Shown in pieces: positions 35,102 to 64,000 of a stretch of 64,000 nucleotides of DNA. The notes below the pieces were generated by a model. That model made no database searches. It was given only the letters and a program-made list of their open reading frames with translations, and was not told the origin of the DNA. Made by a program: the position numbers and the translations under genes. Source of the stretch: Eledone cirrhosa (taxonomy: Eukaryota); assembly GCA_964016885.1 (NCBI GenBank), contig OZ024740.1, positions 423,026,001 to 423,090,000 of the forward strand, in the 5' to 3' direction. Numbering within the stretch: position 1 is the first letter of the stretch; each line of letters starts with the position of its first letter.

Positions 35102-38100
35102 TTACAGGCTGATATAGAGAGAAGGCCCATTCACTCGGGCCATTCTCGCTACTTTCACCCACCTTTCATAAAACTTTCTGGGGTAGAGCACCTCTCTCTC
35201 CATTCTGATCCTTCTTCTAAAGTGGTACTTGAAAAAAAGGACCAGTTGTTGGCCGGAGAGAAAGGTGTCTGACCTCAGCCCTTTCAACCTTGTCCACTAT
35301 ACAACCTCTTTCGCCATAGCTATCACACAGAGGAAAACCGCCTCTCCTTCGTTTTTGAAAGGGGGAGGCGGTTTGATCGTGACAATGTTCTCGGTGGTCA
35401 ACCGGATTGGTCCCACACGCGACAGTAGTCGTTCCACATAGCCCCACATGTCAGCAACGCCCGGGCAGTGTACGAATGCGTGTGCGACAGTTTCCTCGTC
35501 ACGCACGCATCTCGGACAGATTTTCTTCGAGGGGTCCCTACCCGGGCGCCCATGTCTGTAGAGCTTGTCCCGAACGGGTAGAGCTCCTCGGTAACATTGC
35601 CAAGCCAGGGACTTTTAGAAGTTGTCCATCGGTCCCGGGCCAAACGTCCTACCGAACAGACTGGCTAGCTCATCTTCCTCCATGCCCAGAGCCTCTCCGA
35701 GAGCGTCGTCGCACTTACTGCGCACCAACCCTCTATAGAATGTTGAGGTTGAGTCTCCACTGATTGCCGGATCCGCTTGCCAGAGGGCCGTGAGCGCCTG
35801 GGCACATTCAATGTGCCAGTCGCCCACTTTTCTCGGTCTTTGCTTGACCCAGGATTGCAGCTCGGTGAGTGAGACGAGTCTCGGAAAGGCTTGCCTCACA
35901 AACAGGGCCCACACCGGCTGACCGGTGAGGAATACCTGGAGGTGCCGTAGCCTTAATGCGTGTCTACGCATCGTCAGCCACGGCATCCCCAGCCCTCCGT
36001 TCGAAGGATGTTGACAGCAGATGAATCTTCTCACCAAAGGAGCCCGCTTCTTCCAAAGAAATCGGAAGAACGCGCGCTCCATTTTGGCGAGTGTTTTCTC
36101 TGGGCAAGGCACGACGGTCAAGCGGTAGTAGATGACGGACGCTATATAAGCGTTCGCCACCTCCGCTCAACCTTTCAGGGATAGTTTGCACTCGACCCAC
36201 TTCTGGGCGAGTGCAAACACCTTGCCCGTTACCTCGTCCCAGTTTTTCTCCACCTGGAGGTCCGGTCCGAACCAGACCCCGAGCAGCTTCACCGGTCCCT
36301 CCGTCCAGCGTCCGACGATGCCGTCGGAGGGCATCGGTTTTCCCCTCCACGTCCCGAGTTGCAAACCGACTGACTTATCCCGGTTCAGCTTGTCTCCTGT
36401 GAACCTTTCATATTCCTCCAGTAAGGTGCCGATCTTCCCGATTTCCGAGGTGTACGACACCATTACTGTCACGTCATCGGCGTAGGCCGACACCGCTTTC
36501 CGCAATCCCGGTTCCAACTTCCGCAGTAGTGGCTCGAGAGCCAGCACATACAGAAGGGAGGGGAGAGGGCATCCCTGTCAGATGGATCGCGTGATTTGGA
36601 ACGGCTCCGAGAGGTAGCCGTTCACCTTGACCCTCGAGCAGGTGTTGCTGCTGTGCATTGCAGCAATCCGGCCCCTGAAAACGGGTCCGAAGCCTGCCGC
36701 CGCGAGCACCGCATCCAGGTACTGATGGTCGACCCTATCGAACGCCTTAGATTGATCCAAGTTGATCAGGGCCCCACCAAAGCCGGATTCGTTCTCTACC
36801 CTCTCTACAATGTATCGCATGAGGTGGAGGTTGTCGTGTATGGAGCTGGACGGGATTGCGCATGTCTGCGCTTCTCCTACCAGGTTCCCGACGACAAGCG
36901 CCAACCTCTTCGCTAACACCTTGGCCAAAATCTTTAACTCTGTGTTTAGCAGAGTTAAGGGCCTGAAGTTATCTATGTCATCCCCCTTGATCTCGTCCTT
37001 CCTCACCAGCGTGACTACGCCCTTGGTCACAGAACTGGGAATTCTCCCGTTCTGTTGCCAGTTGCAGTAGACCGCTTCGAGGAGACCGGAGAACAAGCCC
37101 GGCATCGCTACATAAAGTTCGTATGGTAGACCATCGAGACCCGGAGATTTGCGTTTGCCGCATTGGCTCAGCGCTTCCCCTATTTCAGCGGCTGAAATCG
37201 GCCTCTCGCAGGTCTTCGCCTCCCCGTCCGAGAGCCGCGCCAGACCGTCGAGGTATGGACCGAAATCCATGGCCCCACCCGGCTCGCCGCCCCTCCCGAA
37301 CAGTAGTGCAAAGCGCCGTTGAAAGGCCGCGCTCATCCGCTCAGGTTCAAGGATCACGCGTCCATCCTGGTCCTTCAAAGACCGAATCGTGGACTTGTTT
37401 CCACTTTTTGCCTCTGTCACTTGGGCCCAGCTAACAACTTTGGCTCCCTCGTTACCCATAGCACGTATTTTACTCCTGACAACGCAGCCCTCGTGCTTCG
37501 CATCAAAGAACTGGTCTAGGGCCGTTCTTGACGCCAGCACGCCGGCCACGTTGCCACTCCTAATCGCCTCTTCTACTCTATCTATTAATTCCCTTTCAGT
37601 TCTATTCCTATCTGTTGCTAATTCCTGACTAAAACCTATCGATTCTATTCTAATTTCTCTCTTGAGAGAGCCCCACCACCTGCTGTTGACAATTTACCCC
37701 CGTCAACCGCTGCTTAACTAGTGTGCTAATCCGCTTACTGTAAGCTTTGTTTGTCGGTAAAGACAAGTCTAGCTTCCAGTAACCGGGTCCTTGTCTATGA
37801 GTTCTATCAAGGTTGACCACTCCGGTCACCAACTTGTGATCCGAATAGTCAACCATGAACATTCGTGGACAGCTTAATATGTCCCTATCCTTATTTCTAA
37901 CTAGGAACCTATCTAGGTACGACCTAGATGTTCCGCTGCGATTAGTCCACGTCCACAGTGGCACAGTCGGAAAATCTAGTCGATATCTATCGGCCAGATC
38001 AAATCGGCCGATTAATCGTTTGAGGCTGTTACACCCCCCTCTATCGGGACATGCCCCTACATAGTCCCAACGTGAATCCAGGATACCATTCCAGTCCCCC

Positions 38101-38515
38101 ACTAAAAGCAAGGAGCGAGACGTTCCCAGGAAATTCTCCAGGCGTCAGAAGAAGTGCGGTCGCAGTGTCCCAGATGGGGCATACGCTGCCACCAGCCTGA
38201 AAGCTCCACCTTCACTACTGCCGACGTCTAAAACCACCAGTCGACCCTCCGGGTCCAGGTGTACCTTCTGTGTGGCAAGATCCAGGTATTTTCGCAGCAG
38301 AACGACAACCCCACCCCACTCCTCGGCTGACAGAGAGATGCGTAGATCTCAAAGTCGTCGAAGATGGGGGCCAGTTGGCGCTCGCTGCTGATCCTGGACT
38401 CGCAAATAACCATTACACCCACTCTGTGCGACCTGAGGTCATTTAAGAGTTTGCCCTGTTTTCAGGACATCCCCAAGCCGCGTGCATTCACACATCCAAC
38501 TCTTATATTGGCCAT
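35102..38515 (-). pseudogene. Tx1-like ORF2: AP endonuclease + reverse transcriptase + C-terminal CCHC (zf-RVT), frameshifted
   Basis: Starts MANIRVGCVNARGL (ATG 38515). EN motifs GDWN, YLDRFLV, SDH, GPGYWK. RT motifs KSPGLDGLPYELY, NFRPLTLLNTELKILAK, LDQSKAFDRVDH, QGCP, YADD, GGLGMP. C-terminal CPRC..DEETVAHAFVHCP. Stop at 35102. Confidence 0.92.
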
Positions 38516-40574: not shown

Positions 40575-41160
40575 TGGTTTAGTGAGAGGGGGGGGGGATT
40601 GCGAGTGAGTGAGGTATGTAGTGGGATATAGAGAGGGGCACAAATTTTGCTAGTTTAGTGAGAGAGGGGGAATTGTGAGAGTGTGAATGAGTGAGGTATG
40701 TAGTGGGATATAGAGAGGAGAGAGTTTCATGGTTTAGTGAGAGAAGGAAAATTGTGTGAGTGATAGAGAGTGAGGTATGTAGTGGCATATAGAGAGTTTG
40801 GTGCTTTAGTGAGAGAGACGTATTATGAGAGAGTAAGGTACGTAGTGGGATATAGAGAGGGGAAGAGAGTTTGATTGATTAGTGAGAGGGGGAAATGAGA
40901 GATTGTGAGAGAGTGAGATATGTGGTGGGATATATAGAGGGAGAAATGTTTAATGGTTTAGTGAGAAAGGGGGAATTAAGAGAGTTAGAGAGTGAGGTAT
41001 CAAGTGAGATATAGAGAGTGAGAGTGAGTTTGGTGGTCTATTGAGAGAGAGGGGGAATGTTGCTCTAGTGATAGAGAGTGAGTAATGTAGTGGGTAGAGA
41101 GAGGATAAGATAGGTATAATGTTTTAGTGAGAGACGGGAAATATTGTGGAGAGAGTGACA
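40575..41160 (+). repeat. Diverged ~80-bp GA-rich minisatellite, right part (about 7 units)
   Basis: GTGAGGTATGTAGTGGGATATAGAGAG recurs near 40609, 40691, 40770, 40832 and further downstream. Confidence 0.85.
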
Positions 41161-41277
41161 AAATAAATATAGGAGGGAAGAAAATGTTATAATCTTGGGT
41201 CTCAGTAAAGCGGATGTGTATGTGTGTGTGTTTATATGGGTGTGTGTGTGTGTTTATATATATGTGTGTGTGTTTAT

Positions 41278-42112
41278 CCTGTTTGTAATTGACCTTTGAG
41301 GTGCTTCAACTTTCATGATACTTTGTTTCATGTGGGGAGACCACAGTAGACAACAGTATTCAAGGTGGAGTCGGGCAAAAGTGGAGAAGAGAAGGATAAC
41401 AGTGTGGATATCTCTCGACTGGAAAGTTCTAAGAATCCAGGAACACATTCTGCGGGCCATATCAACTTTGCTGTTTATATGAGTGGCCCAGCTTATATTG
41501 TTGTCCACAATTACTCCCAAGTCTCTGATGTTGTTGGATGAAGGAAGAGAGTATGGTAGTTTCAGGGCATCCTCATTTCCAAAGTGGATTAACTCAAATT
41601 TATCCTTGTTCAGCAGCATGTTGTTCTTTTCTGCCCATTGGATAACAGCCAGTAGGTCTGACTGAAGGTAAGTCCGGTCACCCACTTCATTGATGACCTT
41701 CTGGAGCTTGGAATCATCTGCGAAGATTCTTATGTTGCTGTATTTGATGATGTCAGTAATGTCATTAATGTAGATGATGAAAAGAAGTGGGCCCAACACA
41801 GTGCCTCGCGGAACACCACCACTGACTTTGGCTGGGCTTGGTTTTACTCCTTCGACTACAACATGTTGGGCTCTGTCTGTCAGGAAACACTTGATCCATT
41901 ACTCTTTTAGAACATATACTACACTTTGATCTTAGCCAGAGACACCAATGTTGGATAGTTTTTTCAATAGAACCTTGTGATCAACCCTGTCAAAGGCCTT
42001 GCTGAAATCAAGGTAGATGACATCAGTGTTGGAGCCCTCTCCCAAAGCTCTCAAAATGTCAGCAAAGTGATGCAGGAGCTGCGTTAGGCTGTCCCTTCCA
42101 TCACAGAACCCA
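41278..42112 (-). mobile_element. CR1/Jockey-group LINE RT fragment
   Basis: YLDFSKAFDRVDH (near 41980-42020), GVPRGTVLGPLLFIIYIND, IFADDSKL, RDLGVIVD, RLHLEYCCLLWSPH. Confidence 0.85.
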
Positions 42113-44682
42113 TCATCATCATCATCATTTAACGTCCATCTTCCACGCTAGCATGGGTCTGGACAGGAATTGTCCCACTTGAGGCAAGATTGGTTGTCTT
42201 GATCAGGACTGTCTGGCGGGTTTTCTACAGCTGGATGCCCTTCCTAACACCAACCACGTTTACAGTGTGGACTGGGAGGTTTTTACCGTGTTACCTATAC
42301 GGCCACATTACAGCGCGGATTGTGTGTTTTTTTGTCGAGACACCTACACGTCCTCATTTATTTAAGACTGGATGTTGTGGTACCAACATAGCTTTACAAT
42401 CGAAAGGGGTGGTGTAGATGGCGGTGGGGGTAGGGGTAGTGGGACGGGGTGTATTTTGGTTAAGAGGTGCCTACTGACTGTAGGTTTCGCTTTGTACTTA
42501 GGCCAGGCGGGTCTTCTGTATTACTACGTAGCGCCAACGATCTTGGTCCAGTGACAATGTCTTGGAGAGGTGTAAGTTTGTGAGGTCGGATTTTATTAAG
42601 TCGTCCCAGGTTTTTCTGGGTCTGCCTACTCCGTGGCTACCGTCTATTTTGATCGCCCTGCACTTTTTTATACAGCTGTCATCTTTCATGCGCATCACGT
42701 GACCATACCAACTTAGTCTTCTCTCGAGTAAACAGCATCTGACCCCTCTTATTCCTAATTTCTCACTTAGTTCATTTATGCTTTGCCGTTCGCGTATATT
42801 ACTATTACACATCCAACGGAGCATGCTAGCTTCGTTCCTCTCCAGTCTGCTAGAACCTCTGCACATAAGGCCCATGTCTCACTGCCATGTAACATCGCTC
42901 TTCGTATGCAGGCATCATACAGCCTGCCTTTTATTTTTAAGAGAGAAACCTTTAGTGGCCAATAGTGGTGTAAGCTCTCTGAACTTTTTCCATCCCGTTC
43001 GGACTCTAGCTACTGTACTTTCGGAGCACCCTCCACCACTGCTGATTTTGTCACCCAGGTAACGGAAGGTGTCCACTATTTCTATAGAACCATCTGGGTA
43101 ATGGAATGAGCTAGTATTCTGTGGGCATTTGCTGCTACTTATTGCACCAGAGCACCGGCCACATAAAATCTATATTCTTAGTTAGCTTACCTGTGATCCC
43201 ACTACATCTTTTATGAACCCATACTTTGCATTTGGGACATAAAATGGAGTTTCTGCCTACTCCTTTCCTACACACTGAGCATGGCCATTTCCCAGATGGG
43301 ACCAGTGCCCTATTTTCTTTCCTACATATTAAAACTTTAGTCTTAGACAAGTTAACTTTAATGCCTTTTGATTCTAGGCATTAATGTTTGGAATTTCTTC
43401 TCTAGTTCAGCCATTGATTCGGCTATGACCATTAGATCATCTGCGTATAGAAGTTCCCATGGGCAGCCGGTCTTGAACTCCTCCGTTATAGCTTGGAGGG
43501 TGATAATAAATAGGAGGGGGCTAAGGACGGAGCCCTGATGAACACCAACTTTTACGCTAAACTCTTTGTTAATTCTAACCTTGCTGACTGTTTCTTTATA
43601 CATGGCTTGTATAGCTCTGACAAGCCATACATCTACACCTAGTTTTCTAAGAGCCCACCAGATAATGGAGCGGGGGACTCTGTCAAAGGCTTTCTCCAGG
43701 TCTACAAAAGCTAAGTAGAGGGGTTTACTTTTAGCTAGGTACTTCTCTTGTAGTTGTCGTACAATGAAAAGAGCGTCTGTGGTACTTTTACCTGACACAA
43801 ACACGAACTGCATTTCATCTAGATCAATTCGTTCTCTGATTAGTTGCACTATTACTTTTTCCGTGACCTTCATGACTTGGTCAATTAATTTAATGTCTCT
43901 ATAGTTTCCCCTATCTAGGGCATCTCCTTTACCCTTGTAGCAGTTAATGATGATGATGCTACGCCAGTCCTTTGGTACGACCCCATTCTGTATTACTTGG
44001 TTAACTATCCTGGTGACCATAGTGTGACCATAGTGTGTTCTAGATGCTTTCAACCTTTCAGCAACTATTTCCGAAGGCCCATCCGCCTTGCCCGCCTTCT
44101 TATCTTTGATTGCCTTACTTATTATACTTTCTTCAACTTGCACTGCTAGTCCCTCTATTGGATCGATGTGGGGGAGACTGTCTTTCTCCCATTTATTCTC
44201 CTCATTTAGTAGCCTTTCGTAGTGACACTGCCAAGCTACCTTCTTATCAGCGTCAGTGATGGCAAGTACACCATCATCATTAAGGACACACTTCTCCCCG
44301 ACAATATCACGGTTCTCCTTGACACATTGTCTAGCAATCCTGAACACCTCACGTTTTTGGTCTTCACGTTGTAGAACATACTTGAACTTTCTTTCCTCTG
44401 CTTCCCTTCTTGCAAAGTACACTTGTCTCCTAGCTTCCCTCCTGGCCACTTGATAGTCTTCTCTACTTCCCCCATCCCGCCATACCTTCCAAGCCTGCTT
44501 TTTGGCCTTGATCGACTCCTCCACCTTACTGTTCCACCACCAAGTTACTCTCCTCCTGCTGATAGGTCTGCTCCAGCCACAGATTCATCTGTCGCCTTCA
44601 GCAAGTTAGCTTTCAGGAATTCCCACTGTTCCTCTATATTGTACGACTCTAATTGCTCTTCCTTACTGTCGAAAGCATCAAG

Positions 44683-45464: not shown

Positions 45465-46772
45465 CAGGGTGGGGCATAAAAACTGTTACAAAATAAAATG
45501 CAAATAGTTCTTGAAAAAAACATTTATTTCAAGATCTGATTTCAACAAATAGTAAGTAATATACTATTAAACAACTGCCTGCCCAAAAATTTATTCGAAA
45601 TGCTTTCCTCTAGCTCTCACTACTGCTCGAAGACTTGTAGGAAAGTCTTCGATGGCTGCACGAACAGTTTCCATGGGTATTTTCTCCCATACTTTATTCA
45701 GTTTTGATTTTAGAGTTTCAATATTTTGGTTAGGAGTAGAGCAGGCTTCACTCTCAAGAATTGACCATAAGGAAAAATCGGGAGGGTTGGGATCTGGTGA
45801 TGTCGGAGGCCACTCTTCCTTACTGATCCATGCAGGACAATGGTCTCTGCACCACTGTTGTGTTACGCAAGCAGTGTGGCTCGTTGCTCCATCTTGTTGG
45901 AGAGTCCAAATGTCATCGCCATAAACAGATATGCACCATGGCATCAGTGCTCCTTCCAAAATATCCTTTATGCAAAGTTCTTTGTTAATTTTAACTCCTT
46001 GAGGCACAAAAATCAGAGGAGACTTCCCTCTTTCAGAAATGGCTGCCCAAGCCATCACTGATGCTGGTTTCCCTGTTCTGAACACTTTTCCTACACTTGA
46101 AGGAATTGCTTTGAGACTTTTTGCAAGTAGTCGATCATTTTGATGATTGTGAGACTGCTGCACAGTGAATAACTTCTCATCTGTAAAGGTCATGTTTTAC
46201 AGCGTGCCATCCTTGATACGGTCCAATAACAGTTTACTTCTCGAGAGCCTATTTTCAATTGTGGCTGCAGAAAGAAGCTGCCTCTTTTGGAACTTATAGG
46301 GTGACATCCCCAGATCATCTCGACATATCCTCCGTATAGTCCTCGGCGATGTTTCTGCTTCTTCTGCCATTTTTCTCATGGACCTTCTTGGATTACGCCT
46401 TATTTTTTCCCTCACACTTTTAACAAGTTTTGGTGTTCTTGAGGTGCGAGGGTGTCCGGATTGAGGTCTGTCTTTGGGTTTGGAAGTGTCCTTAAATCGA
46501 TTAATTGTCCTTTTGATCAACATTCTATTGATCTTAAGAATTTTCCCCAGTTTAAATATCTTGGGTGGAGTCAGGCCTTTTTCATGCTTCTCTATAATGA
46601 ACTTTCTTTTCAATTCTATGGACATTGCAAATAGTTAATGGAGTAATTTTCTGAAAAATAGTTAATATGGTTATAGTGCATGGATTTGATACAAATATAT
46701 TGGTTATATTAACAACATAATGTAATTTTAAATTGATTTAAAACTTTGTAACAGGAATTATGCCCCACCCTG
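45465..46772 (-). mobile_element. Complete Tc1/mariner DNA transposon, DD37D (maT) family, 1308 bp
   Basis: 28-bp TIRs CAGGGTGGGGCATAAaaaCTGTTACAAA / CAGGGTGGGGCATAAttcCTGTTACAAA. TA on both sides within (TA)n tracts. Confidence 0.95.
45591..46625 (-). pseudogene. DD37D transposase (344 codons, one in-frame stop at 46197-46199)
   Basis: N-terminal HTH region with SGHPRT (GRPR-like). Catalytic FTDEK, QQDGATSH and WPPTSPDPNPPD, with 37 residues between the 2nd and 3rd Asp. ORFs 46197-46625 and 45591-46193 share a frame. Confidence 0.92.
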
Positions 46773-46806
46773 TATATATATATATATATCATTATTATTA
46801 TTACTA

Positions 46807-46928
46807 ATAATTGTTTCTACTTTAGGCACAAGGCCAGCAATTACCCAGTGTATTACTGGTACTTTATTTTATCGACCCCGTAAGGATGAAAGGCAAAGTT
46901 TACCTCAGCGTGATTTGAACACAGAATG
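46807..46928 (-). mobile_element. tRNA-derived SINE fragment with Nin/Deu-like core
   Basis: Reverse complement reads GTTCAAATC..CTTTGCCTTTCATCCTTACGGGGTCGATAAAATAAAGTACCAG..GCTGGCCTTGTGCC. Confidence 0.8.
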
Positions 46929-46964
46929 GCAATTACTAATAATGAGTTCAGATGAGTTCAAATC

Positions 46965-47135
46965 AGTCTGAGTTCAAATCCCGCCGAGGTTAACTTTGCC
47001 TTTCATCCTTACGGGGTCGATAAAATAAAGTACCAGTCACGCACTGGGGTCGATTTAACCGACTTTCCCCTCCCCCAAAATTGCTGGCCTTGTGCCTATA
47101 TAAGAAACCATTATAAAGTAGAAACAATTATTATT
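46965..47135 (+). mobile_element. tRNA-derived SINE fragment with Nin/Deu-like core
   Basis: B box GAGTTCAAATCC followed by GCCTTTCATCCTTACGGGGTCGATAAAATAAAGTACCAG and 3' TGCTGGCCTTGTGCC. Confidence 0.82.
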
Positions 47136-47562
47136 ATATATATATACACACACGCTTCTTCTATAACATTTTCTTACTCCTCTCTCTCTTTCATTGGAAG
47201 TCATCGGCTGTGTTCAAATCTAGAGGTGGATGGGCTCCACTAGCTTTAAATGACCCCCCCCCCCCCACATTATTATCACTACGGCGCCCATACGACTACA
47301 TCAGAAGTTAGGGTTCAAGTCATTTCGTTCAGGCAAGTTAAAGAAGAACGATAACTAGAGTAAATTAATGTTAGAGTTGTTTCCCTTTGAAGACAAATTC
47401 TTTCGCATATTTCTTTTAAGTTTGTAAACCAGGTATGCTCCTTTTTACCCTTTCCCACTGGTTTTTTCATTACTTAATTTTGTTTTTATCTTTTTTTAAA
47501 TATTTCCATCATTGTATAACTTTTGTAGTTGAGATAATAAACTTGAAAAATCCAATAAGTAG

Positions 47563-49612: not shown

Positions 49613-52600
49613 ACATACATACATACATACATACATACATACATACATGATGGCTGCCCCTCGTTATCGAGTATGGCCATTGCACGAGAAAAAAAAACGA
49701 TAATAATAACAATAATAATAATAATTGTTTCTACTTTTGGCACACGGCCAGCCATTATCCCAGTGCATTACTGGTACTTTATTTTATCGACCCCGTAAGG
49801 ATGAAAGGCAAAGTTAACCTCGGCGGGATTTGAGCTCAGAATGGCAAGGGCCGTAACACGCACGCACATAAACATATCCACACACACGTTAGCAATTAAC
49901 AGTGCTGCGATCGAATGTGGCTTTTTAGCCCAGCCAATGATCTAAAATATCTTGCACAGAGTTGGCAACCAAAACATTCACGTATGCGATTCGAGATGCC
50001 TCAAAGGCAACTTTCCCCTCATATTCAGTCTTTCTCCATTTATTACGATCAGCAGCAATATTTTCCCATGTATCAGCAGAGGCTTTCAAGGAATCCTTAT
50101 ACCTCTTTTTTGATTTATGTGGAGGTCATTTTCCTTTAACTAACTCTCCATAAAAGAGTTGTTTTGGTATTCTAGAATCCTTCATCCTGGCAAGGTGACC
50201 TCTCCAACGGAGTTTTTGCTTAAGCAGTTACAGAAAGAGCTTTCCAAAATCTCGACATCACTGATGTGGTCCCGCTAGTGAACGCCATGGATTCGTCTGA
50301 GACACATCTGATGGAAACGCTCCAATTGCTTAAGGTGGTGTCGATATGTGACCCAGGTCTCGCAGGCATAAAGAAGAGAAGAGAGTACACATGCCTTGTA
50401 CACCTTTACCTTTGTCTTCTTGCATATGTCTCGCCGACCCCAGAGTCGCCTTTCTAGCTTTCTGAAAGCATCACTTGCTTTCCTAATCCTGAGTGGGATT
50501 TCATTATCAAGGTTGCCGTATCGATTGACAGTGCTTCCCAGGTAGACAAACTGATCAACTACTCCAAGTCGTTTACTATATACATAGATATTTGGTTCAC
50601 TGTACTGCTTACCGGGGGCAGGTTGGTACATGACGACGGTTTTCTTGAGACTGACAATCAATCCTAGAGCAGTGCAAGCATCAGAAAATATATTCAAAAT
50701 GTGCTGCATATCACTCTCTGTGTGCGCTACAAGATCGCAATCATCTGCATACAAGAGATCTCTTATGATTGATGTAAATTCTTTTGTTTTTGCAGCAAAG
50801 CGCCTGGTGTTAAATATGCTACCTCAGGTTCGATATCGGATGTAAACATCATGCTCGCAATTCCTGAATGCAATACAGAAAACCATTGCAAAGTATATAG
50901 CAAACAGCGTCGGTGCTGGAATATTCCCCTGTTTCACTCCATTTTTTACTGAGATAGGCTCCGACATGTTACAGATCCAAACCTTGTTCCATGCACTTCT
51001 CCTGGAGCTGTCTAGTTGAGAAGATCATATAAGTAGTGCCGCGCCCAGCACGAAGACCACATTGACTTTCAGGAAGAACACAATCTGCAATGTGTGTCAG
51101 AAGACGGTCCAGAAGCACCCTACATAAATCTTTCCCTACGACAGAAAGCAATGATATACCTCTGTAGTTCCCACAATCATTCCTGTTACCCTTTCCCTTG
51201 TACAAGACCACCATTACTGCATCTCTCCAGTCCTCAGGTACGGATTCATTAGCTCATATCCTGCCAAAGAAAGAGTGAAGATGTTGCAGAAGTCTCTCAC
51301 CACCATATTGTAGGAGCTCTGCATGTATGCCATCCATACCTGGAGACCTTCCACTGTTCAGCTTCGAGATAGCCACTGCAACCTCCACAAGCGTCGGAGG
51401 TTCTGCAAGAGCTACTTTGAAAGGACTTTCTGGAATGAGATTGAGGAAATCTTCATTGACGACAGACGGCTGATTGAAAAGCTCATGAAAGTGCTCTCGC
51501 CACCTTCATAGAATTCCTTGTGAGTTACGAAGAAGTTCTTTGCCATCCTTGTTGCGAAGCGGCGTCACCAGAGAAGACGGTCCATAAACTTCACACAAGA
51601 GACTGTACAACAGCTTTGTGTTATTGGAATCTGACGCAGTTTGTATCTCATCAGCCTTCTCACTCCACCACTGATCCTTCATCTGAGAAAGACTCCGCCT
51701 AACACGTGATTTCACATCCTTGAGTTCCTTATGCAACATATTCTTCTTCTGTGGTTTTGCCGTCAAGTAGCGTGACAGAGCACGCGTCTTATCAGCCAAC
51801 AAGTCTTCTATATATTCATCATTCTCATTAAACCAGTCTTGATGTTTTCTCTGCACCAATCCCAGAACACGCCTGCCTACATCATGAACCGACTTTTTAA
51901 GGGCCGGCCAATCCTCACCAAGATCTGCAACCTGCATATCTTCTCGGAATGTCCTCTTCACATTTTTATCCCTAAGACGAGCAGCATTCAATCTTCTGGG
52001 CAGGGTAACACCAGGAGCCCGAATTCTACGTTTAGTGATTAGTTTCACTTCTGCGCGTACCAGGCGGTGGTCCGTCCAGCACTCAGCTCCACGAAGAGCA
52101 TGAACACACTGCACATCCCATCTGTCACGCATCCTGACTAGGACGTAGTCCAAAAGATGCCATGCCTTAGATGCAGGATGCATTCATGTAGTCTTAAATT
52201 TGTTCTTTTGTTGGAACATGGTGCTGGTAACACACAGATCCAGCTCCTCACACATCTACAGCAGGAGCATACCATTGTTGTTACACTTTCCCACCCCATG
52301 CCTTCCGATTACATTCCATGAGTTAAAATCCCTACCCACTCTAGCATTAAAGTCACCAAGTACGATGACTTTGTCTGCCTGAGGGATATTTCTTAAAACA
52401 CCTTTCAAGGCATGAATTGTTGGAGCAATCACACTCACCAGGGTCGGATATCTTCCTTTGTCCAGCGGAATTCTCATGGACATAAGACGCTCACTAATCC
52501 CTACTGGGAATTCTTCTAATTTATCCACAAGAACAGTCTTAACAGCAAATGCTACCCCAGCTTCTCTTCTGGTTCCTTCATCTCTTCCTTTCCATAAGAA

Positions 52601-52894
52601 TGTATATTCTCCACAAAATTCTGTAAGATGACTATCTCCAGCTAACCTCGTCTCAGATAAAGCTACGATGTCAAGAGCGTAACGTCGAAGCTCCTTTGCA
52701 ACAAGAGCGGTCCTTCGTTCAGGACGTTCCAAGGAATCCCTGTCAAGCAGCGTCCGTTTGTTCCAGCAGCCAAGACTAAATGCCTTGTTTGGCTCTATTA
52801 CAGTGGCACAATGACGAGCGGGCCCAGGCTGGGATAACCTGGGGCCCCTGCCCTTATTGCCAATTATCTCTTTTATATTGTTTTGGAACATCAT
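49613..52894 (-). mobile_element. RTE-BovB-like LINE (EN + RT + C2H2), degenerate, with internal RT deletion and (ATGT)n tail
   Basis: EN: LGCWNKRTLLD, PERRTALVAKEL, ALSETRL, LGDFNARVG, MHPASKAWHLLDY, TDHRLV. RT: NYRGISLLSVVGK, PESQCG, GVKQG..APTLF, LYADD. The DxxKAFD region is missing near 50968. C-terminal CQLCARYFRSLAGLKSHIRSQH, stop at 49896. Tail at 49613-49690. Confidence 0.92.
49719..49856 (-). mobile_element. Nin/Deu-core SINE fragment inserted in the RTE-BovB 3' UTR
   Basis: CTGGTACTTTATTTTATCGACCCCGTAAGGATGAAAGGCAAAGTTAACCTCGGCGGGATTTGAGCTCAG, the same family as 46807 and 57371. Confidence 0.85.
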
Positions 52895-52912
52895 TGAATT
52901 GGGAAAAAAAAG

Positions 52913-52991
52913 TAATAATAATGGTAACAATAATAATAATAATAATACATACATACATACATACATACATACATACATACATACACACACA

Positions 52992-53072
<81 letters not shown>
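52913..53072. repeat. (AAT)n(ACAT)n(CA)n(TA)n compound microsatellite
   Basis: Direct reading. Confidence 0.95.
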
Positions 53073-53074
<2 letters not shown>

Positions 53075-53080
53075 TACGTA

Positions 53081-53194
53081 ATAAATTGTGGTCCGATGCA
53101 TCACTGATTCTTCGTTTTCCATATTATCATACTCTGCTCCGAGTATGATAATATGGAAAACGAAGAATCAGTGATGCATCGGACCACAATTTAT
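53081..53194. repeat. Perfect inverted repeat, 54-bp arms, 6-nt loop
   Basis: 53081-53134 is the exact reverse complement of 53141-53194. Loop TGCTCC. Flanked by (TA)n. Confidence 0.95.
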
Positions 53195-53248
<54 letters not shown>

Positions 53249-53438
53249 TTACATAATAAGCAACACAATATCATTATTTCATTACCAAAGGTTTCAAGAA
53301 ACTAGATGATTCTTGCAAGAAAACCTCAGCTCGTTCGACAGACGAAACAATTATATTGTGTTGTTTATTATGTAACTAAATAGCCCTGTACTATACATAG
53401 AGCACTCTTCTTTTCTTTACCTTTCCTGCGGAAATACT

Positions 53439-53516
<78 letters not shown>

Positions 53517-53519
<3 letters not shown>

Positions 53520-53628
53520 GGAATGAGTAGGACCCCGACGGCTGAGCTCAAGCCGTTTCGACGGCTAATTCCAGAATTAGCCGTCGAAACGGCTTGAGCT
53601 CAGCCGTCGGGGTCCTACTCGTTCCTAT
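53517..53628. repeat. Near-perfect inverted repeat, 55-bp arms, 2-nt loop
   Basis: ATAGGAATGAGTAGGACCCCGACGGCTGAGCTCAAGCCGTTTCGACGGCTAATTC-CA-reverse complement, with one mismatch. Confidence 0.95.
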
Positions 53629-53808
53629 TACCCACTCTACTACCCTAAGTATTGAGTACTTTGGTGCGTTATGGTCCACCTGGTTCCTTACCACATTTCC
53701 TTCGTTATATATATATATATACGTAGGTCCCGGGTTGAGTCGGGGATAACCACAGTAAGTAAGGTACTCAATACATGGCAGAGTAAAATATATTTATTGT
53801 ATAGAAGG

Positions 53809-53859
53809 AGCTTCTACAGGACTAGTACTGTTTCATTCCGATGAAATCTTCAGGAAGCT
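53809..53859 (-). ncRNA. Type I hammerhead ribozyme (PLE-associated)
   Basis: AGCTTC-CTGAAGA-TTTCATCGGAAT-GAAACAG-TACTAGTC-CTGTA-GAAGCT: CUGANGA and GAAA core, stems I-III, GUA cleavage triplet. Confidence 0.8.
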
Positions 53860-53866
53860 GGGTGTC

Positions 53867-55375
53867 TTACCTAGACTACGTGCTGCCTCACCCCTCCCAC
53901 TCTGGAATAGGACATCAGAGGCAATCACATGGTTCCGGGACTTGCCCGACAAAAGCAACACCCGCTTCCTGCAGCTAGACATCGAGGACTACTACGCCTC
54001 CATATCAGAGAGCCTGCTGATTGACGCGATTAACTTCGCCAGGAACTTTACCACAATCACCGAAGCCGAGCAGGATGTGATCCTCCATGCACGTAAGACT
54101 TTTCTTTACCATGACAGATCCCACTGGATCAACAAAAAATCTGAGACCCCCTTCGACGTTAGCATGGGCGCTAGCGACTCAGCTGAAATAAGTGACCTTG
54201 TGGGTCTGTTCATCCTCCACAGGTTGAAGACCCTCTTCACAGGCCTCTCCGGCGGTCTCTACCGAGATGACGGCCTCTTTGCCCTCCACAAAATCAACCC
54301 CAGGACCACGGATGGGTTCAGGAAAAACCTTTACACCTTCTTTAAAAACTTAGGCCTTAGGATTACCTTAGATTCGAACTTAACTAAAGCTAACTTCCTA
54401 GACGTTACCCTCGACTTAGAAACTTCCCTTTACTACCCGTACCACAAACCTAATGAATCCCTTAGATATATAGACGTTAATTCTAAACCCCCCCCCCCAA
54501 AAAAAAAAATATATTAGACAGCCTAGTGAAAAGTGTCTCCATTAGGATATCTAGCCTCGCCGCCAATGAAGATATCTTTAGAGCAGCAGCCCCCTATTAC
54601 AACGAGGCCCTGGTCCGCAGCGGCTTTAGAGATAAGATCACCTACCTTAGTATAGCCCCACGCCCACCCAGGAAGAATAGGCGAAGGCACATTAGCTGGT
54701 ACAACCCCCCCCTTCAACCGCGAAGTTTCAACACCTGTAGCTAAAATTTTCTTCACTCTCTTACAAAAACACTTCCCCACCCAACATAGGTACTATACAA
54801 TCCTTAATAAGAATACCATTAGACGCTCTTACTCTACCACACCTAATCTAGCTAGGAACTTAGCCAACAATAACGTCAAGAAGCTAAATAAGTCTACTTT
54901 TTCCGAAGCCCATCCAGCAACCGATGGCAATTGCAATTGCCCTGATAAGACTACCTGCCCCCTCAACAACAACTGTCTAAAAAAAGATCTCGTCTATATA
55001 TGCGATGTACTCTCAGGCCCCGATGAAAAAAGAAACTCGTACATCGGGATGACTTCTAACAGTTTTAAGACTCGCTGGTACGCCCACACACATTCGTTCC
55101 GGCGCCCAGACAAATCTAACCAAACAACACTCGCCGCCCACATCTGGCACCTTAAAAGGAACTCCATCCCCTTCAAGACCCAATGGAGACTACTCCAGAG
55201 AGCGCGATCCTACACGGGAGGCCATAATTGCTGTGACCTCTGTATCTCCGAGAGCTATGAGATTCTATTCGCCAAAGGCCCTCTCCTTAACACGATCTCG
55301 GAACACTCCCCTAATTGCATGCACAAGAACTATGCAAATTACAAAAACTACAGACTCACCCGGCCCCCCGATTGC
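53867..55375 (+). pseudogene. Penelope-like RT (partial) + C-terminal GIY-YIG endonuclease, two frameshifts
   Basis: [87 protein letters not shown]. Frameshifts fall at homopolymer runs near 54490-54509 and 54705. Confidence 0.9.
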
Positions 55376-56024
55376 CCCTCCCCCAATATCACCACCCCAC
55401 CCCGTCCCCCATCCCACTTCCGTCCCTCCATCTCTCATTATTACCTCCTTTCCTCCCCTCTATCTCTCATTATTACCTTCTTTCCTCCCCTCCAGGTCTT
55501 ATATATTGTGTTGTACCTCTGAGTAAGGTTCCGTGGCCGCACACACAAATTCACGTATATATCTGCTCATGTTTGCATACGTGCAGTTATGAACTACTGC
55601 ACGCACACGTTCGAGATTTATTTATTTATCTATTTATTTGTATATTTATTTATTTATTTATTTATTTATTTATTTGTTTATTTGTTTATCTGTTTGTTTG
55701 TTTGTTTGTTAGTTAACTCATTTATTTATTAATTAATAAGTGAATGATTAAGTAATGAATAGATAAAAGATAAAAGATAGGTAATGAATAGTGAATGGTA
55801 AATAATAAATAATAATTAATTACTTGATGATAATATTAATAACTTAGTAGTGATAATTATTATTTTAATCCTCTATCAGGCTCAGTTTATAATTTGTCCC
55901 ACTACTTTTTCCCAATATATTATAGATACATGTATGTGTGCGAACGAGTGCGTGTATGTGTATATGTGTTTATGTGTATGTATTTGTATGTGTGTATGTG
56001 TATGTATGCGTGTGTGCATGTATA

Positions 56025-56068
<44 letters not shown>

Positions 56069-56480
56069 TCCTCTCCCCCACCCCTCTATCCACACACGCA
56101 CATACACTCCGACCTACACCCCACCCCACACACACCTCTTCCTGAACATGCAACCCCGTTCTTCCCCCAACCCTTGCTTTCACATACACACACACACACA
56201 CACACACACGTACACCTACACACACACACCACCTTCAGCCCTCCCCGCTCGGACACCCCGTCTCCCTCTCCTCACTCCATCCACCACCACCACCCCTACA
56301 CACCCCTCACCCTTCCACCACCTGTTTTACCCCTTTTTAATTTCAGTTTATTCTGATCATGCTTTTATATTTATTTTTATTTTTAATTTCATTCGCACCG
56401 TTTCCTCCCACCCCCTTTTCGCTATATGTCTCTCCACCACTCCCCTACACACCCTTTGAACTCTCTTCCCACACACTTCT

Positions 56481-56512
56481 CACCTGAGGAAGGGTTTATG
56501 CCCGAAACGTCG
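56481..56512 (+). ncRNA. Hammerhead-like motif (core and stem II only)
   Basis: CTGAGGA-AGGGTTTATGCCC-GAAACGTC. Stem II GGG/CCC is present, but no convincing stem I partner was found. Confidence 0.4.
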
Positions 56513-56586
56513 TTCCCCACAACCACCCCACTCTCCAGAGCGTGAAATTAATAAACTTTTTTCTTGTGTGTATATATATATATATG

Positions 56587-56633
<47 letters not shown>

Positions 56634-56928
56634 AGATATGCACATATATATATATGTGTGTGTAAGTGTTTATGTATGTGGTTGTGAGTATGTAAATATA
56701 TCTCATTCTTTCCATTCTACAAAAACACTCTGGCCACCTGTAGCTTGTATGTTAACTTGACCACTCACCTCAGTCTGTGCCATGATTCGGTCTTGTTTAT
56801 TTTCTAATACCAACCCACCTAAAAAAAAATATAAAAAAAAAATTTCCCTACTATATATCTGTTGAATTACTATTCTTGGGGTTTTTATTTATTTTTATTT
56901 ATTTTTATTTATTTATTCATTTATCTAT

Positions 56929-56959
<31 letters not shown>

Positions 56960-57167
56960 CTTATTTATTTACTTTTTCTTTTTCTTTTCCTTTTATTTTA
57001 CAAAAGCACTCTGGCTAATTGACCACTCCCCAAAGAAAAAACGGCCTGTGACATGTTGTGGTCCTGTGTATCTAAATACCATCCTACCCCCCAAAATCCC
57101 CCCCCAGCCACCACCCCTCCCTTACCACTACCTAAATGTATAAATACCAGAACTTAATATGACACCC

Positions 57168-57218
57168 AGCTTCCTGAAGATTTCATCTGAATGAAACAGT
57201 ACTAGTCCTGTAGAAGCT
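57168..57218 (+). ncRNA. Type I hammerhead ribozyme at PLE 3' end
   Basis: AGCTTC-CTGAAGA-TTTCATCTGAAT-GAAACAG-TACTAGTC-CTGTA-GAAGCT. Predicted cleavage after 57212. AATAAA follows shortly downstream. Confidence 0.82.
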
Positions 57219-57295
57219 CCTTCTATACAATAAATATATATATATATATATATTTGTATATATATATATACATACACAGCCACTATCATGTAGAT

Positions 57296-57326
<31 letters not shown>

Positions 57327-57370
57327 GCGTGTGCATGTGTGTGTGTGTGTGTGTGTAATAATTATGATAA

Positions 57371-57563
57371 AATAATTGTTTCTACTTTTGGCACAAGGCC
57401 ATCAATTACCCAGTACATTACTGGTACTTTATTTTATCGACCCCGTAAGGATGAAAGGCAAAGTTAACCTCGGCGGGATTTGAACTCAGACCGTAAAGGG
57501 AGGACGTAACTATGCTGGAAAGCATGGCGTCCGACCCTCTACCGATACTGCCAATCCACACCC
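57371..57563 (-). mobile_element. tRNA-derived SINE with Pol III A and B boxes and Nin/Deu-like core
   Basis: Minus strand: A box TGGCAGTATCGG (57553-57542), B box GAGTTCAAATCC (57487-57476), then GCCTTTCATCCTTACGGGGTCGATAAAATAAAGTACCAG. Confidence 0.85.
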
Positions 57564-57797
57564 GTGGTATGCGCTCGGCTAGGTATACCGGCATTATCTT
57601 TCAGGAATCTCCCCTCCACTCCAATGCAAAGATACCGCACTCCCTCTCAAGTCAGCGAGGATGTGTGTGGAGGAGGGGGGGGGGGTTAACGTGCTCTGAT
57701 GTTGGGTTTGAATAGTTAAAAATCGTACTCAGTAGTTTTGCAAGGACCTGTATGGCACACTGATGATGTAATGCAATGTGGATGCAATCAGCTTGGG

Positions 57798-57927
57798 AAG
57801 AGTTGAAATTAATACATGCAAGATTTCATAGCTCTAGCATCACTCCTTCCAAGTCAGCCTATGAACCTTTCAGCCTACTCTCGTATATATTTACACAGCT
57901 CCGTATATATACCTCACACTCTCTTTT

Positions 57928-57961
<34 letters not shown>

Positions 57962-58300
57962 AAGAGGGGGTGAGTGATACATGTGTATTCCTATACACAC
58001 CGTAAGTAGACTCTCAAACACACCTATTACGGGAGATAATCAGGGAATGAAGTTAAGAAGAGTAGCCTCCCTTAAAAGTTAGTTGTTCGGAAATTGAGAA
58101 CATTTTTACTGTAAAATGTTTGCAAAATGCTTCTGATTGCAAACATTTTACAGTAAAAATGTTCTCAATTTCCGAACAACTAACTTTTAAGGGAGGCTAC
58201 TCTTCTTATCTTCATCCCCTGATTATCTCCCGTAATAGGTGTGTTTGAGAGTCTACTTACGGTGTGTATAGGAATACACATGTATCACTCACCCCCTCTT

Positions 58301-58373
<73 letters not shown>

Positions 58374-58504
58374 AAAAAGAGAGAGTGAGGTATATATACG
58401 GAGCTGTGTAAATATATACGAGAGTAGGCTGAAAGGTTCATAGGCTGACTTGGAAGGAGTGATGCTAGAGCTATGAAATCTTGCATGTATTAATTTCAAC
58501 TCTT
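57798..58504. repeat. Large inverted duplication (arms 57798-58125 and 58137-58504, 11-nt spacer)
   Basis: The arms are reverse complements apart from a few substitutions and different (TA)n/(GA)n lengths. Confidence 0.95.
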
Positions 58505-58613
58505 ATTAATAACTGCACTGTTTCTTTCCAGAGACGATGTTGAAAAATAAACCTCATTTGGTCATGCCATGAAAGTATCTTGGTCAACCTATGAACTTTG
58601 AAGGTGACTCTCG
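58419..58613 (+). mobile_element. Mariner-type MITE or internally deleted remnant
   Basis: TA-CGAGAGTAGGCTGAAAGGTTCATAGGCTGAC ... GTCAACCTATGAACTTTGAAGGTGACTCTCG-TA: imperfect TIRs with TA flanks. Confidence 0.6.
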
Positions 58614-58620
58614 TATAATA

Positions 58621-58940
58621 CATACTTCATGGCTGCCTCCTCGTTATCGAGTATGGCCATTGCACGATATAACATTAGTAATAATTATTAATTAATGCTT
58701 TTGTGCAATAGCTGTGCGTGAAGATCTTTTTAAAGAGAGGAAAGACTGTGCACTGAGTCAATCCCTCTCTCTCTCTCTCTGAACGACAGTAGCTATAACC
58801 CGAAAAGAATAAAAGATCAACATCATCGGTAACTACTGAGCTGCAGGTTTTATGTCGAAGTTATCCCAGTATCCTGAGTTGCCTTCTCCTACAAGAATGC
58901 CCTGACAAAGGCTAGGGGTAACTTCACTCCCAGTGGTTTA
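58621..58940 (-). mobile_element. Diverged non-autonomous RTE-derived element, copy C
   Basis: Shares ATGGCTGCC.CCTCGTTATCGAGTATGGCCATTGCACGA with the RTE-BovB tail at 49650, and TCAACATCAT..GCAGGT..CCTTCTCCTA..TGACAAAGGCTA with copies A and B. Confidence 0.65.
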
Positions 58941-58989
58941 ATCGCGCGATTGGGTATCCAGCCCGACTATTTCTATGTCCCCGCACATA

Positions 58990-59404
58990 TACATACATAC
59001 ATACATGGTGGCTGCCAACTCATTTTCGAGTACGGCCACTACTTTATATCCATGTAGGAGAACCCCTACCGATGCGCTGAACGAGTGTGGCTTTTTAGTC
59101 CAACCAGCGACTTGAAAACTCTGGTACTTGTGACAATTATTGACACATAGTGCTGGGCCCATGGTACCATGTGATGACAAGTGCAGAGAGATCTCCAGAT
59201 ATAAAGCAATGCCTGTGCCGTGAAGCTTTTATAGTGAGCAAAGGCACTGCACAAAGCCAGTCCCACTCTCTTAACCAAGATGATATTTACCAAAAAGAAG
59301 AACAATTCAACATCATTGGATACCATCAGGGTTGCAGGTGTTATATCAGAGTCTTCCTTCTCCTAGAATTCTGCCTTGACAAAGGCTAAGGGGTCATCTC
59401 TCCC
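58990..59404 (-). mobile_element. Non-autonomous RTE-derived element, copy B, in (ACAT)n
   Basis: Near-identical to 48993-49414 except for an 11-nt deletion and a few substitutions. Bounded by (ACAT)n on both sides. Confidence 0.85.
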
Positions 59405-59445
59405 ATACATACATACATACATACATACATACATACATACATACA

Positions 59446-59476
<31 letters not shown>

Positions 59477-59481
59477 CTATA

Positions 59482-59631
59482 TGGCGTTAGAAAGGGCATC
59501 TAGTTGTAGAAATCAAGACAAAAACAGTTCTGAATGAGCAAGACAAGATCACCTGACCTGGCATTTCTCACAAGACAACTCGTCTAACCCACGATAGCGT
59601 TGAAAAATGAATGTTAAACGGTGATGATGAT
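59482..59631 (+). mobile_element. Short RTE-type 3' end remnant with (GAT)n tail
   Basis: GGCGTTAGAAAGGGCATCTAG..CGTCTAACCCA..TGTTAAACGGTGATGATGAT resembles 48066-48215. Confidence 0.6.
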
Positions 59632-59712
59632 ACACACATACAAACACAAACACACACGTGCGCACACACACACACATATATATATACACATATATATACA
59701 TATACACACACA

Positions 59713-59767
<55 letters not shown>

Positions 59768-59779
59768 TTAATATAGATG

Positions 59780-59830
59780 AGATTCTACAGGACTAGAACT
59801 GTTTCATTCATTAGAAATCATCAGGAATCT
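59780..59830 (-). ncRNA. Type I hammerhead ribozyme (PLE-associated)
   Basis: AGATTC-CTGATGA-TTTCTAATGAAT-GAAACAG-TTCTAGTC-CTGTA-GAATCT. Stem I covaries with the other two copies. Confidence 0.82.
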
Positions 59831-60009
59831 GGGTATCAAAAAATAAATATGGTATTTATAGGTCTCTACAAGTGGTAGGAGAGGGTGGGAAGTTGGATGG
59901 GTGCAGGTCATTGGTTGATAGAAAAGGGAATTCATTAAAAGCTAATTCTACAAAGCTATAGTTAATTTTTATTTTTATTTATATTTATTTATGTTTTTAG
60001 AGCAACAAG

Positions 60010-61236
60010 AAATCTCAGACCCCATTTGACGTTAGCATGGGGGCGAGTGACTCGGCCGAAATTAGCGACCTTGTGGGCCTGTACATCCTACATAACCTGA
60101 AGAACCTCTTTACCGGCCTAACTGGAGGTTTATACCGAGACGACGGCCTCTTCGCCCTGCATAAGGTTAGCCCCAGAACCACCCATGGGTTTCGGAAAAA
60201 CTTAAGCTCTTTCTTCTCTAATCTAGGATTTAGTATAACTATAGATTCTAATTTGACTAGGGCCAACTTCTTAGATGTCACTCTCGACCTAGATACTTCC
60301 CTCTATTACCCGTACCACAAACCTAATGAGTCCCTTAAATATATTAATGTTAATTCAAACCACCCCCAAAACATTACTGATAACCTAGTAAAAAGCGTCT
60401 CTATTAGAATATCTGGCCTCTCCGCCAACAAAGATATTTTTAATGCATCTGCCTCCTACTACAATGACGCCCTAGCCCGTAGCGGATTTAAAGATAAGAT
60501 AACTTACCTAGAAACCACCGCAAAATTGCAGAGGAGGAATAGACATAGGCAGATTAGCTGGTACAACCCTCCCTTCAATAGAGAGGTATCTACTCCGATA
60601 GCTAGGATTTTCTTCACTTTACTGAAATTACACTTCCCCATACAACATAGGTACTACACCATCTTTAATAAGAACACTATAAGACTTTCTTACTCCACCA
60701 CACCTAACCTAGCTAGGAATATAGCCAACCACAACTCTAAACTAAATAAGCCAACCACCTCCGAAACCAATCCCCGGACTGGGGCTCTATGTAATTGCCT
60801 AAATAAGGAAGCATGCCCACTAGAAAACAAATGCCTCACAAATGACATCGTATACAAATGCGATGTCATCTCGGGCACCGAGGATTGCAAAAAAACTTAC
60901 ATCGGCATGACCTCCAACACTTTTAAGACCCGCTGGTATGCCCATACCCACTCCTTCAGAAGACCGGATAAATCAAATCAAACAACACTCGCCTCCTACG
61001 TTTGGGACCTCAAAAGGAACTCCACCCCCTTCACGCTTAATTGGAAAATACTCCAGAAAGCGCGCTCTTACAACGGAGGACACAAGGGCTGCGACCTTTG
61101 TATTTCAGAGAGCTACGAAATTTTATTCGCCAAGGGCCCGCTACTGAACAAACTCTCTGAACACTGCCCGAACTGCATGCACAAGAACTTTGCAACATTC
61201 AAACACTTTAAGCCAGTGTTAAAGCCCGATGGCTAA
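60010..61236 (+). CDS. Penelope-like RT C-terminal half + GIY-YIG endonuclease (uninterrupted, 5'-truncated)
   Basis: 399-aa ORF 60037-61236 plus a few upstream in-frame codons: [69 protein letters not shown]. Confidence 0.88.
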
Positions 61237-61379
61237 AAACGACCTCCCCCTACTGGCCCCTATACCTCCTCCCCACCCTACCCCCACCCCTCCTCAACCT
61301 GAAATACGGCCACTATGGTCATGTGAGTACCTCTTTCGTATCTACATTTTCTGCCTGTAGAGGTGTCTTTATGTGCCTG

Positions 61380-63860
<2,481 letters not shown>

Positions 63861-64000
63861 ATGTGTCTGTTGATTTTGGCATATTGTTGATTAGTTTAAG
63901 AGAAGTTCGAAGATAATAGTAAGATATGCACTCAGTATTTTGAATCTGTCTGCAGAATTCCCTAGACCTTTGTCACTTAGTAGAACCTTAATGACTTTAG

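Follow-up and report, generated by a model that had tools for sequence, protein, structure and literature searches.

Hammerhead ribozymes are universal in the Hydra clade within the Penelope-like elements (PLEs), which was described by Craig et al. 2021 (PMC8557442) and defined there by a CxCx5C linker, the lack of a CCHH motif, CxxC and CxH flanks, insertion into (TA)n, RWK/DKT motifs and a length generally <3 kb. File S2 of that study catalogs the hammerheads of 25 Hydra families, 14 of which (14/25) have U/U flanking stem II by our own count. The same source lists inverted 5'-truncated copies as a common PLE feature and describes the role of the hammerhead in these elements as still unclear. 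Here we describe two related elements, A and B, in a 64,000-nt stretch of the Eledone cirrhosa genome (contig OZ024740.1, positions 423,026,001 to 423,090,000 of the forward strand), hereafter called the window. In our assessment A and B are likely 5'-truncated Hydra-clade insertions with a type I hammerhead in the tail, each preceded by a flipped tail that would stem from a template switch. A cut after GUA is predicted for their hammerheads, which would most likely act in pairs held together by a CUAG loop.

Element A opens with an inverted copy of its own 3' terminus (53788-53869, minus strand), which is 97.6% identical to 57158-57239. Over 79 nt this tail shows a single mismatch, and it includes a few further bases common to the junction with the open reading frame (ORF). 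It breaks off 7-10 nt upstream of hammerhead stem I and abuts the ORF, and its inverted end stops in a short ATATAT. The latter (about 53864-55372, plus strand) encodes a 5'-truncated reverse transcriptase (RT) with a YRDD motif, a thumb, a CxCx5CP linker and a GIY-YIG-type endonuclease (EN). It carries two frameshifts, one in a C11/A11 run at 54488-54509 and one in a C run at 54705-54712, and its last frame remains open to 55522 across low-complexity sequence. The presumed 3' region of about 1.8 kb (55373-57167, plus strand) is rich in repeats, with 617 nt in tandem-repeat tracts, and the sense end of A passes into (TA)n from 57230, about 15 nt past stem I. Element B starts at a (TA)n tract (59676-59764) with an inverted 3' terminus (59760 to about 59950, minus strand) that is 82% identical to 57139-57274 and is covered by contigs from four runs. 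Some 50 T-rich bases part this piece from a 5'-truncated but uninterrupted frame of 411 codons encoding RT, thumb, linker and EN (60001-61236, plus strand). A (TA)-like array of 2.2 kb (61471-63709) follows 3' of the B ORF, and then unrelated sequence. The ORFs of A and B share 75.7% identity in DNA and 73% in protein, and their differences fall mostly at third codon positions (17/8/53 at positions 1/2/3).

The original prediction, made from the DNA letters, had read this locus as PLEs with hammerheads in a terminal repeat and with inverted tail copies on 5'-truncated ORFs, and the anatomy supports it; we are highly confident of the identity of A and B as described. The further claim that an antisense 3'-end copy is fused to the truncated ORF in both elements stands for A, where the 97.6% identical copy abuts the ORF. 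In B the gap of about 50 bases intervenes and the element's own sense tail is absent from the window.

A structural descriptor recovered three type I hammerheads with a GUA site, at the positions where they had been predicted: A1 at 53809-53859 (minus strand; predicted cut after A at 53815), A2 at 57168-57218 in the sense 3' end of A (plus strand; predicted cut after 57212) and B at 59780-59830 (minus strand; predicted cut after A at 59786). All three run in the order stem I (6 bp), CUGANGA, U, UUC-4-nt loop-GAA, U, GAA, ACAG-8 nt-CUGU, A, stem I. The descriptor matched exactly these motifs and no others in the whole 64-kb window. By chance it is expected to match 0.015 times on average (maximum 1), as estimated from 200 block-wise dinucleotide shuffles of 33001-64000, the non-satellite half, and at the observed stem lengths none of the shuffles matched (0/200). 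The kept core, stem III ACAG/CUGU, the GUA site, the stem I letters, the loop II variants (ATCG, ATCT and TAAT) and the CTAG inside loop III are all as first claimed. Stem II is a 3-bp, A-U-rich helix (UUC/GAA) flanked by U/U and lacks the usual G10.1-C11.1 pair. The motifs had also been called minimal, and this part has to be withdrawn. Minimal hammerheads have a helix III of 0 or 1-2 bp, a bulged base before stem II and G10.1-C11.1, whereas helix III here is a full 4 bp with an 8-nt loop, so that A1, A2 and B fall outside the minimal class that Cervera and de la Pena described. The prediction had overlooked a fourth core, CTGAGGA...GAAACGTC at 56484-56511 (plus strand). It is a degenerate core of the minimal type, with a bulged A, a G-C closing and an ACGT palindrome; its stem I is broken (about 2 bp), and it does not satisfy the descriptor. 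Rfam gave no hammerhead match on 50000-64000, 57100-57228 or 56440-56560, a blank that is uninformative because most control loci went undetected as well: of 10 loci with descriptor-positive hammerheads, only two canonical minus-strand motifs in one locus (L059) were found. An exact-pattern scan of metagenome contigs for the A/B hammerhead family returned 0 matches.

Since A1 and A2 differ at 1 of 51 positions, what had been presented as three covarying ribozymes amounts to two independent sequences. The hammerheads of A and B differ at seven positions. Two of these make up a single stem I pair (C-G to A-U), one is the free N7, three lie in loop II and one in loop III. All seven are tolerated, and neither subfamily has lost the GUA site or any base of the catalytic core. 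The probability that seven randomly placed substitutions spare core and helices is about 0.0015, in a test chosen after the motif had been seen. We take this as fair evidence that the structure is under constraint, and the predicted selection on structure thus finds some backing in the comparison of the two subfamilies. The claimed compensatory change in stem I is present in that one pair changes on both sides. It falls short as evidence of covariation, with 1 of 13 pairs changed in two sequences and a score equalled in 166 of 500 shuffles, and this counts against our reading. Stem I variants GGC/GCC and GAC/GTC, taken from the consensus of contig loose ends, look compensatory but are unphased and ambiguous in offset and were not counted as covariation.

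Conserved structure need not mean activity. The motifs could be catalytically feeble or dead and retained at the end of the RNA as a signal for priming or for the binding of a protein, as the weak stem II described above might suggest. In the data given in PMC4209133, the in vitro activity of PLE hammerheads from metazoans was low, and Naiads spread without canonical hammerheads according to PMC8557442. We nevertheless consider such a loss of function unlikely, given the intact catalytic core and GUA site in both subfamilies and a U/U closing that is common across Hydra families. Cleavage after GUA is probably real.

The motifs of A and B point to the Hydra clade of Craig et al. 2021. Both elements have a YRDD RT and thumb, then VY...YIG in a C-terminal EN, in a single ORF. 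The Pfam GIY-YIG match is weak (E 0.017, below the cut-off), and RT-EN proteins align with 93-99% of B. The linker is CxCx5CP in both (CNCPDKTTCP in A). There is no CxxC between VY and YIG and the CCHH motif is missing, and by inspection of the alignment CDLC precedes E370 and CMH follows N383 in both elements. Their RT4(B) region is divergent and aligns with FDVxMGxYDGAExCEL of the homologues, a pattern likewise found in Hydra proteins. (TA)n lies at three element ends, among them the 3' end of A and the inverted end of B, and a canonical type I hammerhead sits near the 3' end, about 15 nt from (TA)n, another feature of the Hydra clade. The RWK/DKT region is missing from A and B, as both are 5'-truncated, so that for this motif the evidence comes from relatives. 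B matched 656 proteins, the best 120 of which are RT-EN ORFs of about 700 aa with 39-45% identity. Among the 52 of these 120 that reach at least 660 aa, 45 have an RWK-type motif, 49 DKT/S, 46 CxCx5CP and 51 YRDD. The nearest relative in a library-wide search, P0153, is 58% identical to B and 53% to A and has RWR and DKT; the named homologues are cnidarian (Oculina, Sanderia). Other clades differ from A and B in these same features. Naiad/Chlamys elements have an N-terminal EN and no canonical hammerhead, whereas here the EN is C-terminal and hammerheads are present, and neither the CCHH in the EN of Penelope/Poseidon, Neptune and Nematis nor the CX2-5CxxC linker of Neptune and Nematis occurs in A or B. 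No relatives were found in viral contigs, a PDB sequence search gave 0 matches, and a search of longer fused proteins gave one match, which is chimeric and apparently unrelated.

The original prediction had left the clade to phylogeny. The motifs allow us to name Hydra, and the RT tree held Hydra-like homologues only: in its 41 rows A and B form a sister pair, set apart from the 39 other homologues by a long branch of 1.0 changes per site. Screening of 79 related loci and the window found no ORFs of other PLE clades usable as outgroups. Because the tree lacks labeled outgroup clades (Neptune, Poseidon, Nematis), the placement rests on motifs, and this is one of three points at the level of the elements that weigh against our reading. 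The second is the distance from the CxH motif to the hammerhead in A, about 1850 nt compared with 97-387 nt in 41 of the 67 related loci that reach CxH, which makes the continuity of the A tail with its ORF an assumption. As the third, no CTGANGA core was found on the plus strand of 61237-64000; B therefore has no sense hammerhead in the window, and what we call its own 3' end is inferred through the 82% homology to that of A.

The long 3' region of A contains a diverged internal duplication (about 56700-56825 versus 56980-57100). It also contains a C-rich segment of 0.5 kb (56066-56570, plus strand) that lies between two (TA)n tracts and holds the 56484-56511 core; this segment is probably the 3' tail of a different Penelope-like family nested in A. 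Including simple repeats and this putative insertion, the truncated sense part of A (53864-57239) measures 3.4 kb. A thus exceeds the usual Hydra length of <3 kb because of its 3' region of about 1.8 kb, "generally" in PMC8557442 expressing a tendency.

Public contigs from four runs, representing four coded organisms, were aligned to 59765-60240. In contigs of all four organisms a 45-nt core (59783-59827) is joined to many different flanking sequences, and its sole listed variant lies in loop II at 59810. In run X1, joints from 59840-59844 to 59766-59771 create head-to-tail hammerhead units of about 77 nt, with 4 contigs at the main joint and 12 junction forms listed plus 3 more. Loose ends in X5 and X6 read as head-to-head hammerheads. 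The 77-nt joints come from one run of the four and from short contigs, in which a two-copy pseudo-long terminal repeat (pseudo-LTR) and a longer array look the same. The point where the inverted copy of A stops, 7-10 nt upstream of stem I, lies close to the X1 breakpoint. The hammerhead core far exceeds the ORF in summed contig depth, a quantity that does not measure copy number and was left unused.

Such pieces raise the alternative that hammerhead fragments of 80-200 nt mostly form a separate non-autonomous, retrozyme-like family, mobilized by the Hydra enzyme and joined to ORFs by template switching between RNAs. The many unrelated flanks of the core, the head-to-tail and head-to-head joints and the abnormal ORF-to-hammerhead distance in A agree with it, and no listed contig bridges the inverted piece of B to its ORF (the repeats at 59952-60000 were skipped). 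Yet tail and ORF appear to have diverged together, the A-type hammerhead lying on both sides of ORF A (97.6% identity) and the B-type abutting ORF B; extreme 5' truncation of ordinary copies would yield the same short pieces, and inverted copies of an element's own tail are the norm in PLEs (PMC8557442). On balance we hold a separate family to be improbable and keep to truncated Hydra-clade insertions with their own tails. A bolder reading, which we offer as speculation with a rather low chance of being right, is that the lineage spawned hammerhead-only mini-elements of about 77-80 nt. One 45-nt core would then be shared across families and species in head-to-tail pairs, and all would dock through the CUAG loop to be cleaved as double hammerheads, either in cis or, between different families, in trans. 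This would be a near-minimal retrozyme that relies on a Hydra-clade enzyme and whose breakpoint recurs 7-14 nt upstream of stem I.

Folding models bear on whether the hammerheads act singly or in pairs. Folded into a hairpin, helix III alone is marginal (-1.4 kcal/mol), whereas its self-duplex is stable (-15.2 kcal/mol in A and -12.8 in B). In a modeled 77-nt tandem, the two helix III segments cross-pair with a probability of 0.69-0.98. Two monomers reach -11.8 kcal/mol in this model and the double hammerhead -18.4, an advantage of 6.6 kcal/mol. The self-duplex and tandem models thus support the dimer mode that had been suggested as possible, and, given cleavage, a mainly dimeric action is slightly favored. 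Other results of the same modeling argue in the opposite direction. The minimum-energy fold of the tandem (-22.9) differs from the double hammerhead, cross helix I reaches only 0.12-0.27, the monomer hammerhead fold lies above the minimum-energy fold by 1.7-3.1 kcal/mol in A and 0.3 in B, and stem II pairs with a probability of 0.01-0.19 in monomers. About 10-12% of the permutations of the loop letters (161/1680 and 105/840) dimerize as well as the real loop, so that the CUAG palindrome stands out only slightly. None of the z-scores for single-strand folding (-1.04 to +0.27) reached significance.

The same elements might instead carry hammerheads that act as monomers, for which a helix III of 4 bp and its 8-nt loop would suffice and CUAG would be incidental. 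Helix III does pair at 0.76-0.85 in the A1 monomer, at just 0.14-0.25 however in A2 and B. In fungal PLEs, hammerheads that have a large helix III act as monomers when they cut (PMC4209133), and where two sequences are 86% identical, the retention of 4 nt offers weak evidence for a function of the loop; on the other side, no variant of at least 4% is listed at the CTAG positions in the four runs, in a table limited by contig ends. We regard monomeric action as a credible but less probable option and continue with the paired hammerhead.

The element anatomy, together with known PLE biology, suggests how such insertions could form. The C-terminal endonuclease would nick (TA)n, and reverse transcription would begin at the UA-rich end of the RNA, about 15 nt past the ribozyme. 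An early stop combined with a strand switch could then leave an inverted tail fused to a truncated ORF, and at the junction in A a few bases fit both sides. In transcripts with two tandem tails, the two hammerheads may combine into one double hammerhead, which would set unit-length RNA free. The antisense copies at A and B would not cut the sense transcript and would be by-products.

The surroundings of both elements are repetitive. Positions 1-32970 are occupied by a strongly G-skewed satellite array with an 85-bp unit (389 copies, 93% matches), and 79-bp units at 40603-41031 are related to it. Between A and B lies a near-perfect palindrome of 707 nt (57798-58504) with inner arms that are 98% complementary, an 11-nt spacer and microsatellites in both arms. 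Further short palindromes stand beside (TA)n or (CA)n tracts at 53043-53232, 53517-53628 and 46771-47150 and are possibly inverted tail-only insertions of other retroelements. A dispersed repeat resembling a short interspersed nuclear element occurs at 46791-46932, 49704-49847 and 57356-57491 (90-96% identity), partly as inverted pairs. Its copy at 57358-57490 and the abundance of microsatellites seem reminiscent of octopus DNA. A broken long interspersed nuclear element (LINE) with APE and RT matches covers 50275-53071 on the minus strand; more broken LINE elements (33056-33625, 35618-38144 and 41257-44584) and a Tc1/mariner-like transposase (45594-46634) were recognized by eye.

A and B are a new family in a known clade with an already published architecture, and the family may already be deposited in Repbase or Dfam. 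In the accessible literature on octopus hammerheads, cephalopod retrozymes and octopus Penelope elements the A/B family is not described, and the main text of PMC13282606 contains neither "ribozyme" nor "Hydra". The family adds one lineage to the published catalog of Hydra hammerheads, and the accessible PLE and hammerhead literature holds no cleavage assay of a Hydra-clade hammerhead that we could find. Its small structural departures and the possible 77-nt units make the A/B hammerhead a test case: with a mutable dimer interface and a natural 77-nt tandem, monomer and double-hammerhead action are separable in one experiment. The short tandem units, if real and abundant, would connect PLE tails with retrozymes in a compact form.

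Compared with the Hydra elements of PMC8557442, A and B share the order of RT and GIY-YIG-type EN, the divergent RT4 and a 3' type I hammerhead, often with U/U at stem II. Penelope-13_HM (File S1) also has an inverted 5'-truncated copy with an antisense hammerhead, as in A. Unlike the families of File S2, in which loop III measures 0-3 nt, A and B have an 8-nt loop III with CUAG; the weak 3-bp stem II (UUC/GAA) and the repeat-rich 3' region of A are further departures. Hydra-1_Obim from Octopus bimaculoides (Files S1, S2 and S7) resembles A and B in clade, (TA)n preference and RT4 region but is a different family, its RT being about 47% identical to that of A (by a hand count, 74 residues of about 157). 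Its hammerhead has a 7-bp stem II and a 1-nt loop III, in an element of 2507 bp in all. Descriptor-positive hammerheads are also present in 43 of the 79 related metagenome loci, several of which are near-duplicates, and loop III is again 0-3 nt in all but one of the motifs found there, which has a TA-rich insert. Seven of these loci (L014, L015, L031, L049, L052, L055 and L059) carry the same or a near-identical hammerhead on both sides of the ORF, in a direct pseudo-LTR layout. The Hydra-clade element in L059 bears hammerheads of its own at either end. Just downstream of it, two motifs of the canonical Rfam Hammerhead_1 type lie antisense and 281 nt apart (2636-2682 and 2917-2963, minus strand), possibly a retrozyme dimer beside a PLE.

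Cervera and de la Pena 2014 (PMC4209133) described minimal hammerheads in the pseudo-LTRs of PLEs and proposed dimer action for them. A and B share with these the type I topology in terminal repeats, and opposite-strand motif pairs were noted in that study in Schistosoma. A1, A2 and B differ from the minimal motifs in their full helix III and lack of G10.1-C11.1, whereas the 56484 core does fit the minimal pattern. Non-LTR retrozymes (PMC7229834; bioRxiv 10.64898/2026.07.22.740005) are head-to-tail tandem hammerhead units derived from PLE tails and expressed as circular RNA; in the axolotl their motifs cut better as dimers, and consensus lengths range from 51 to 972 bp. Unlike these, the 64-kb window holds no tandem hammerhead array, the 77-nt unit being seen only as contig joints in one run. 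The Aedes aegypti hammerhead (Perreault et al. 2011, PMC3088659) likewise has a palindromic loop III, which pairs in the dimer to form a long helix, whereas the corresponding helix of A and B would be 4+4+4 bp with two internal loops.

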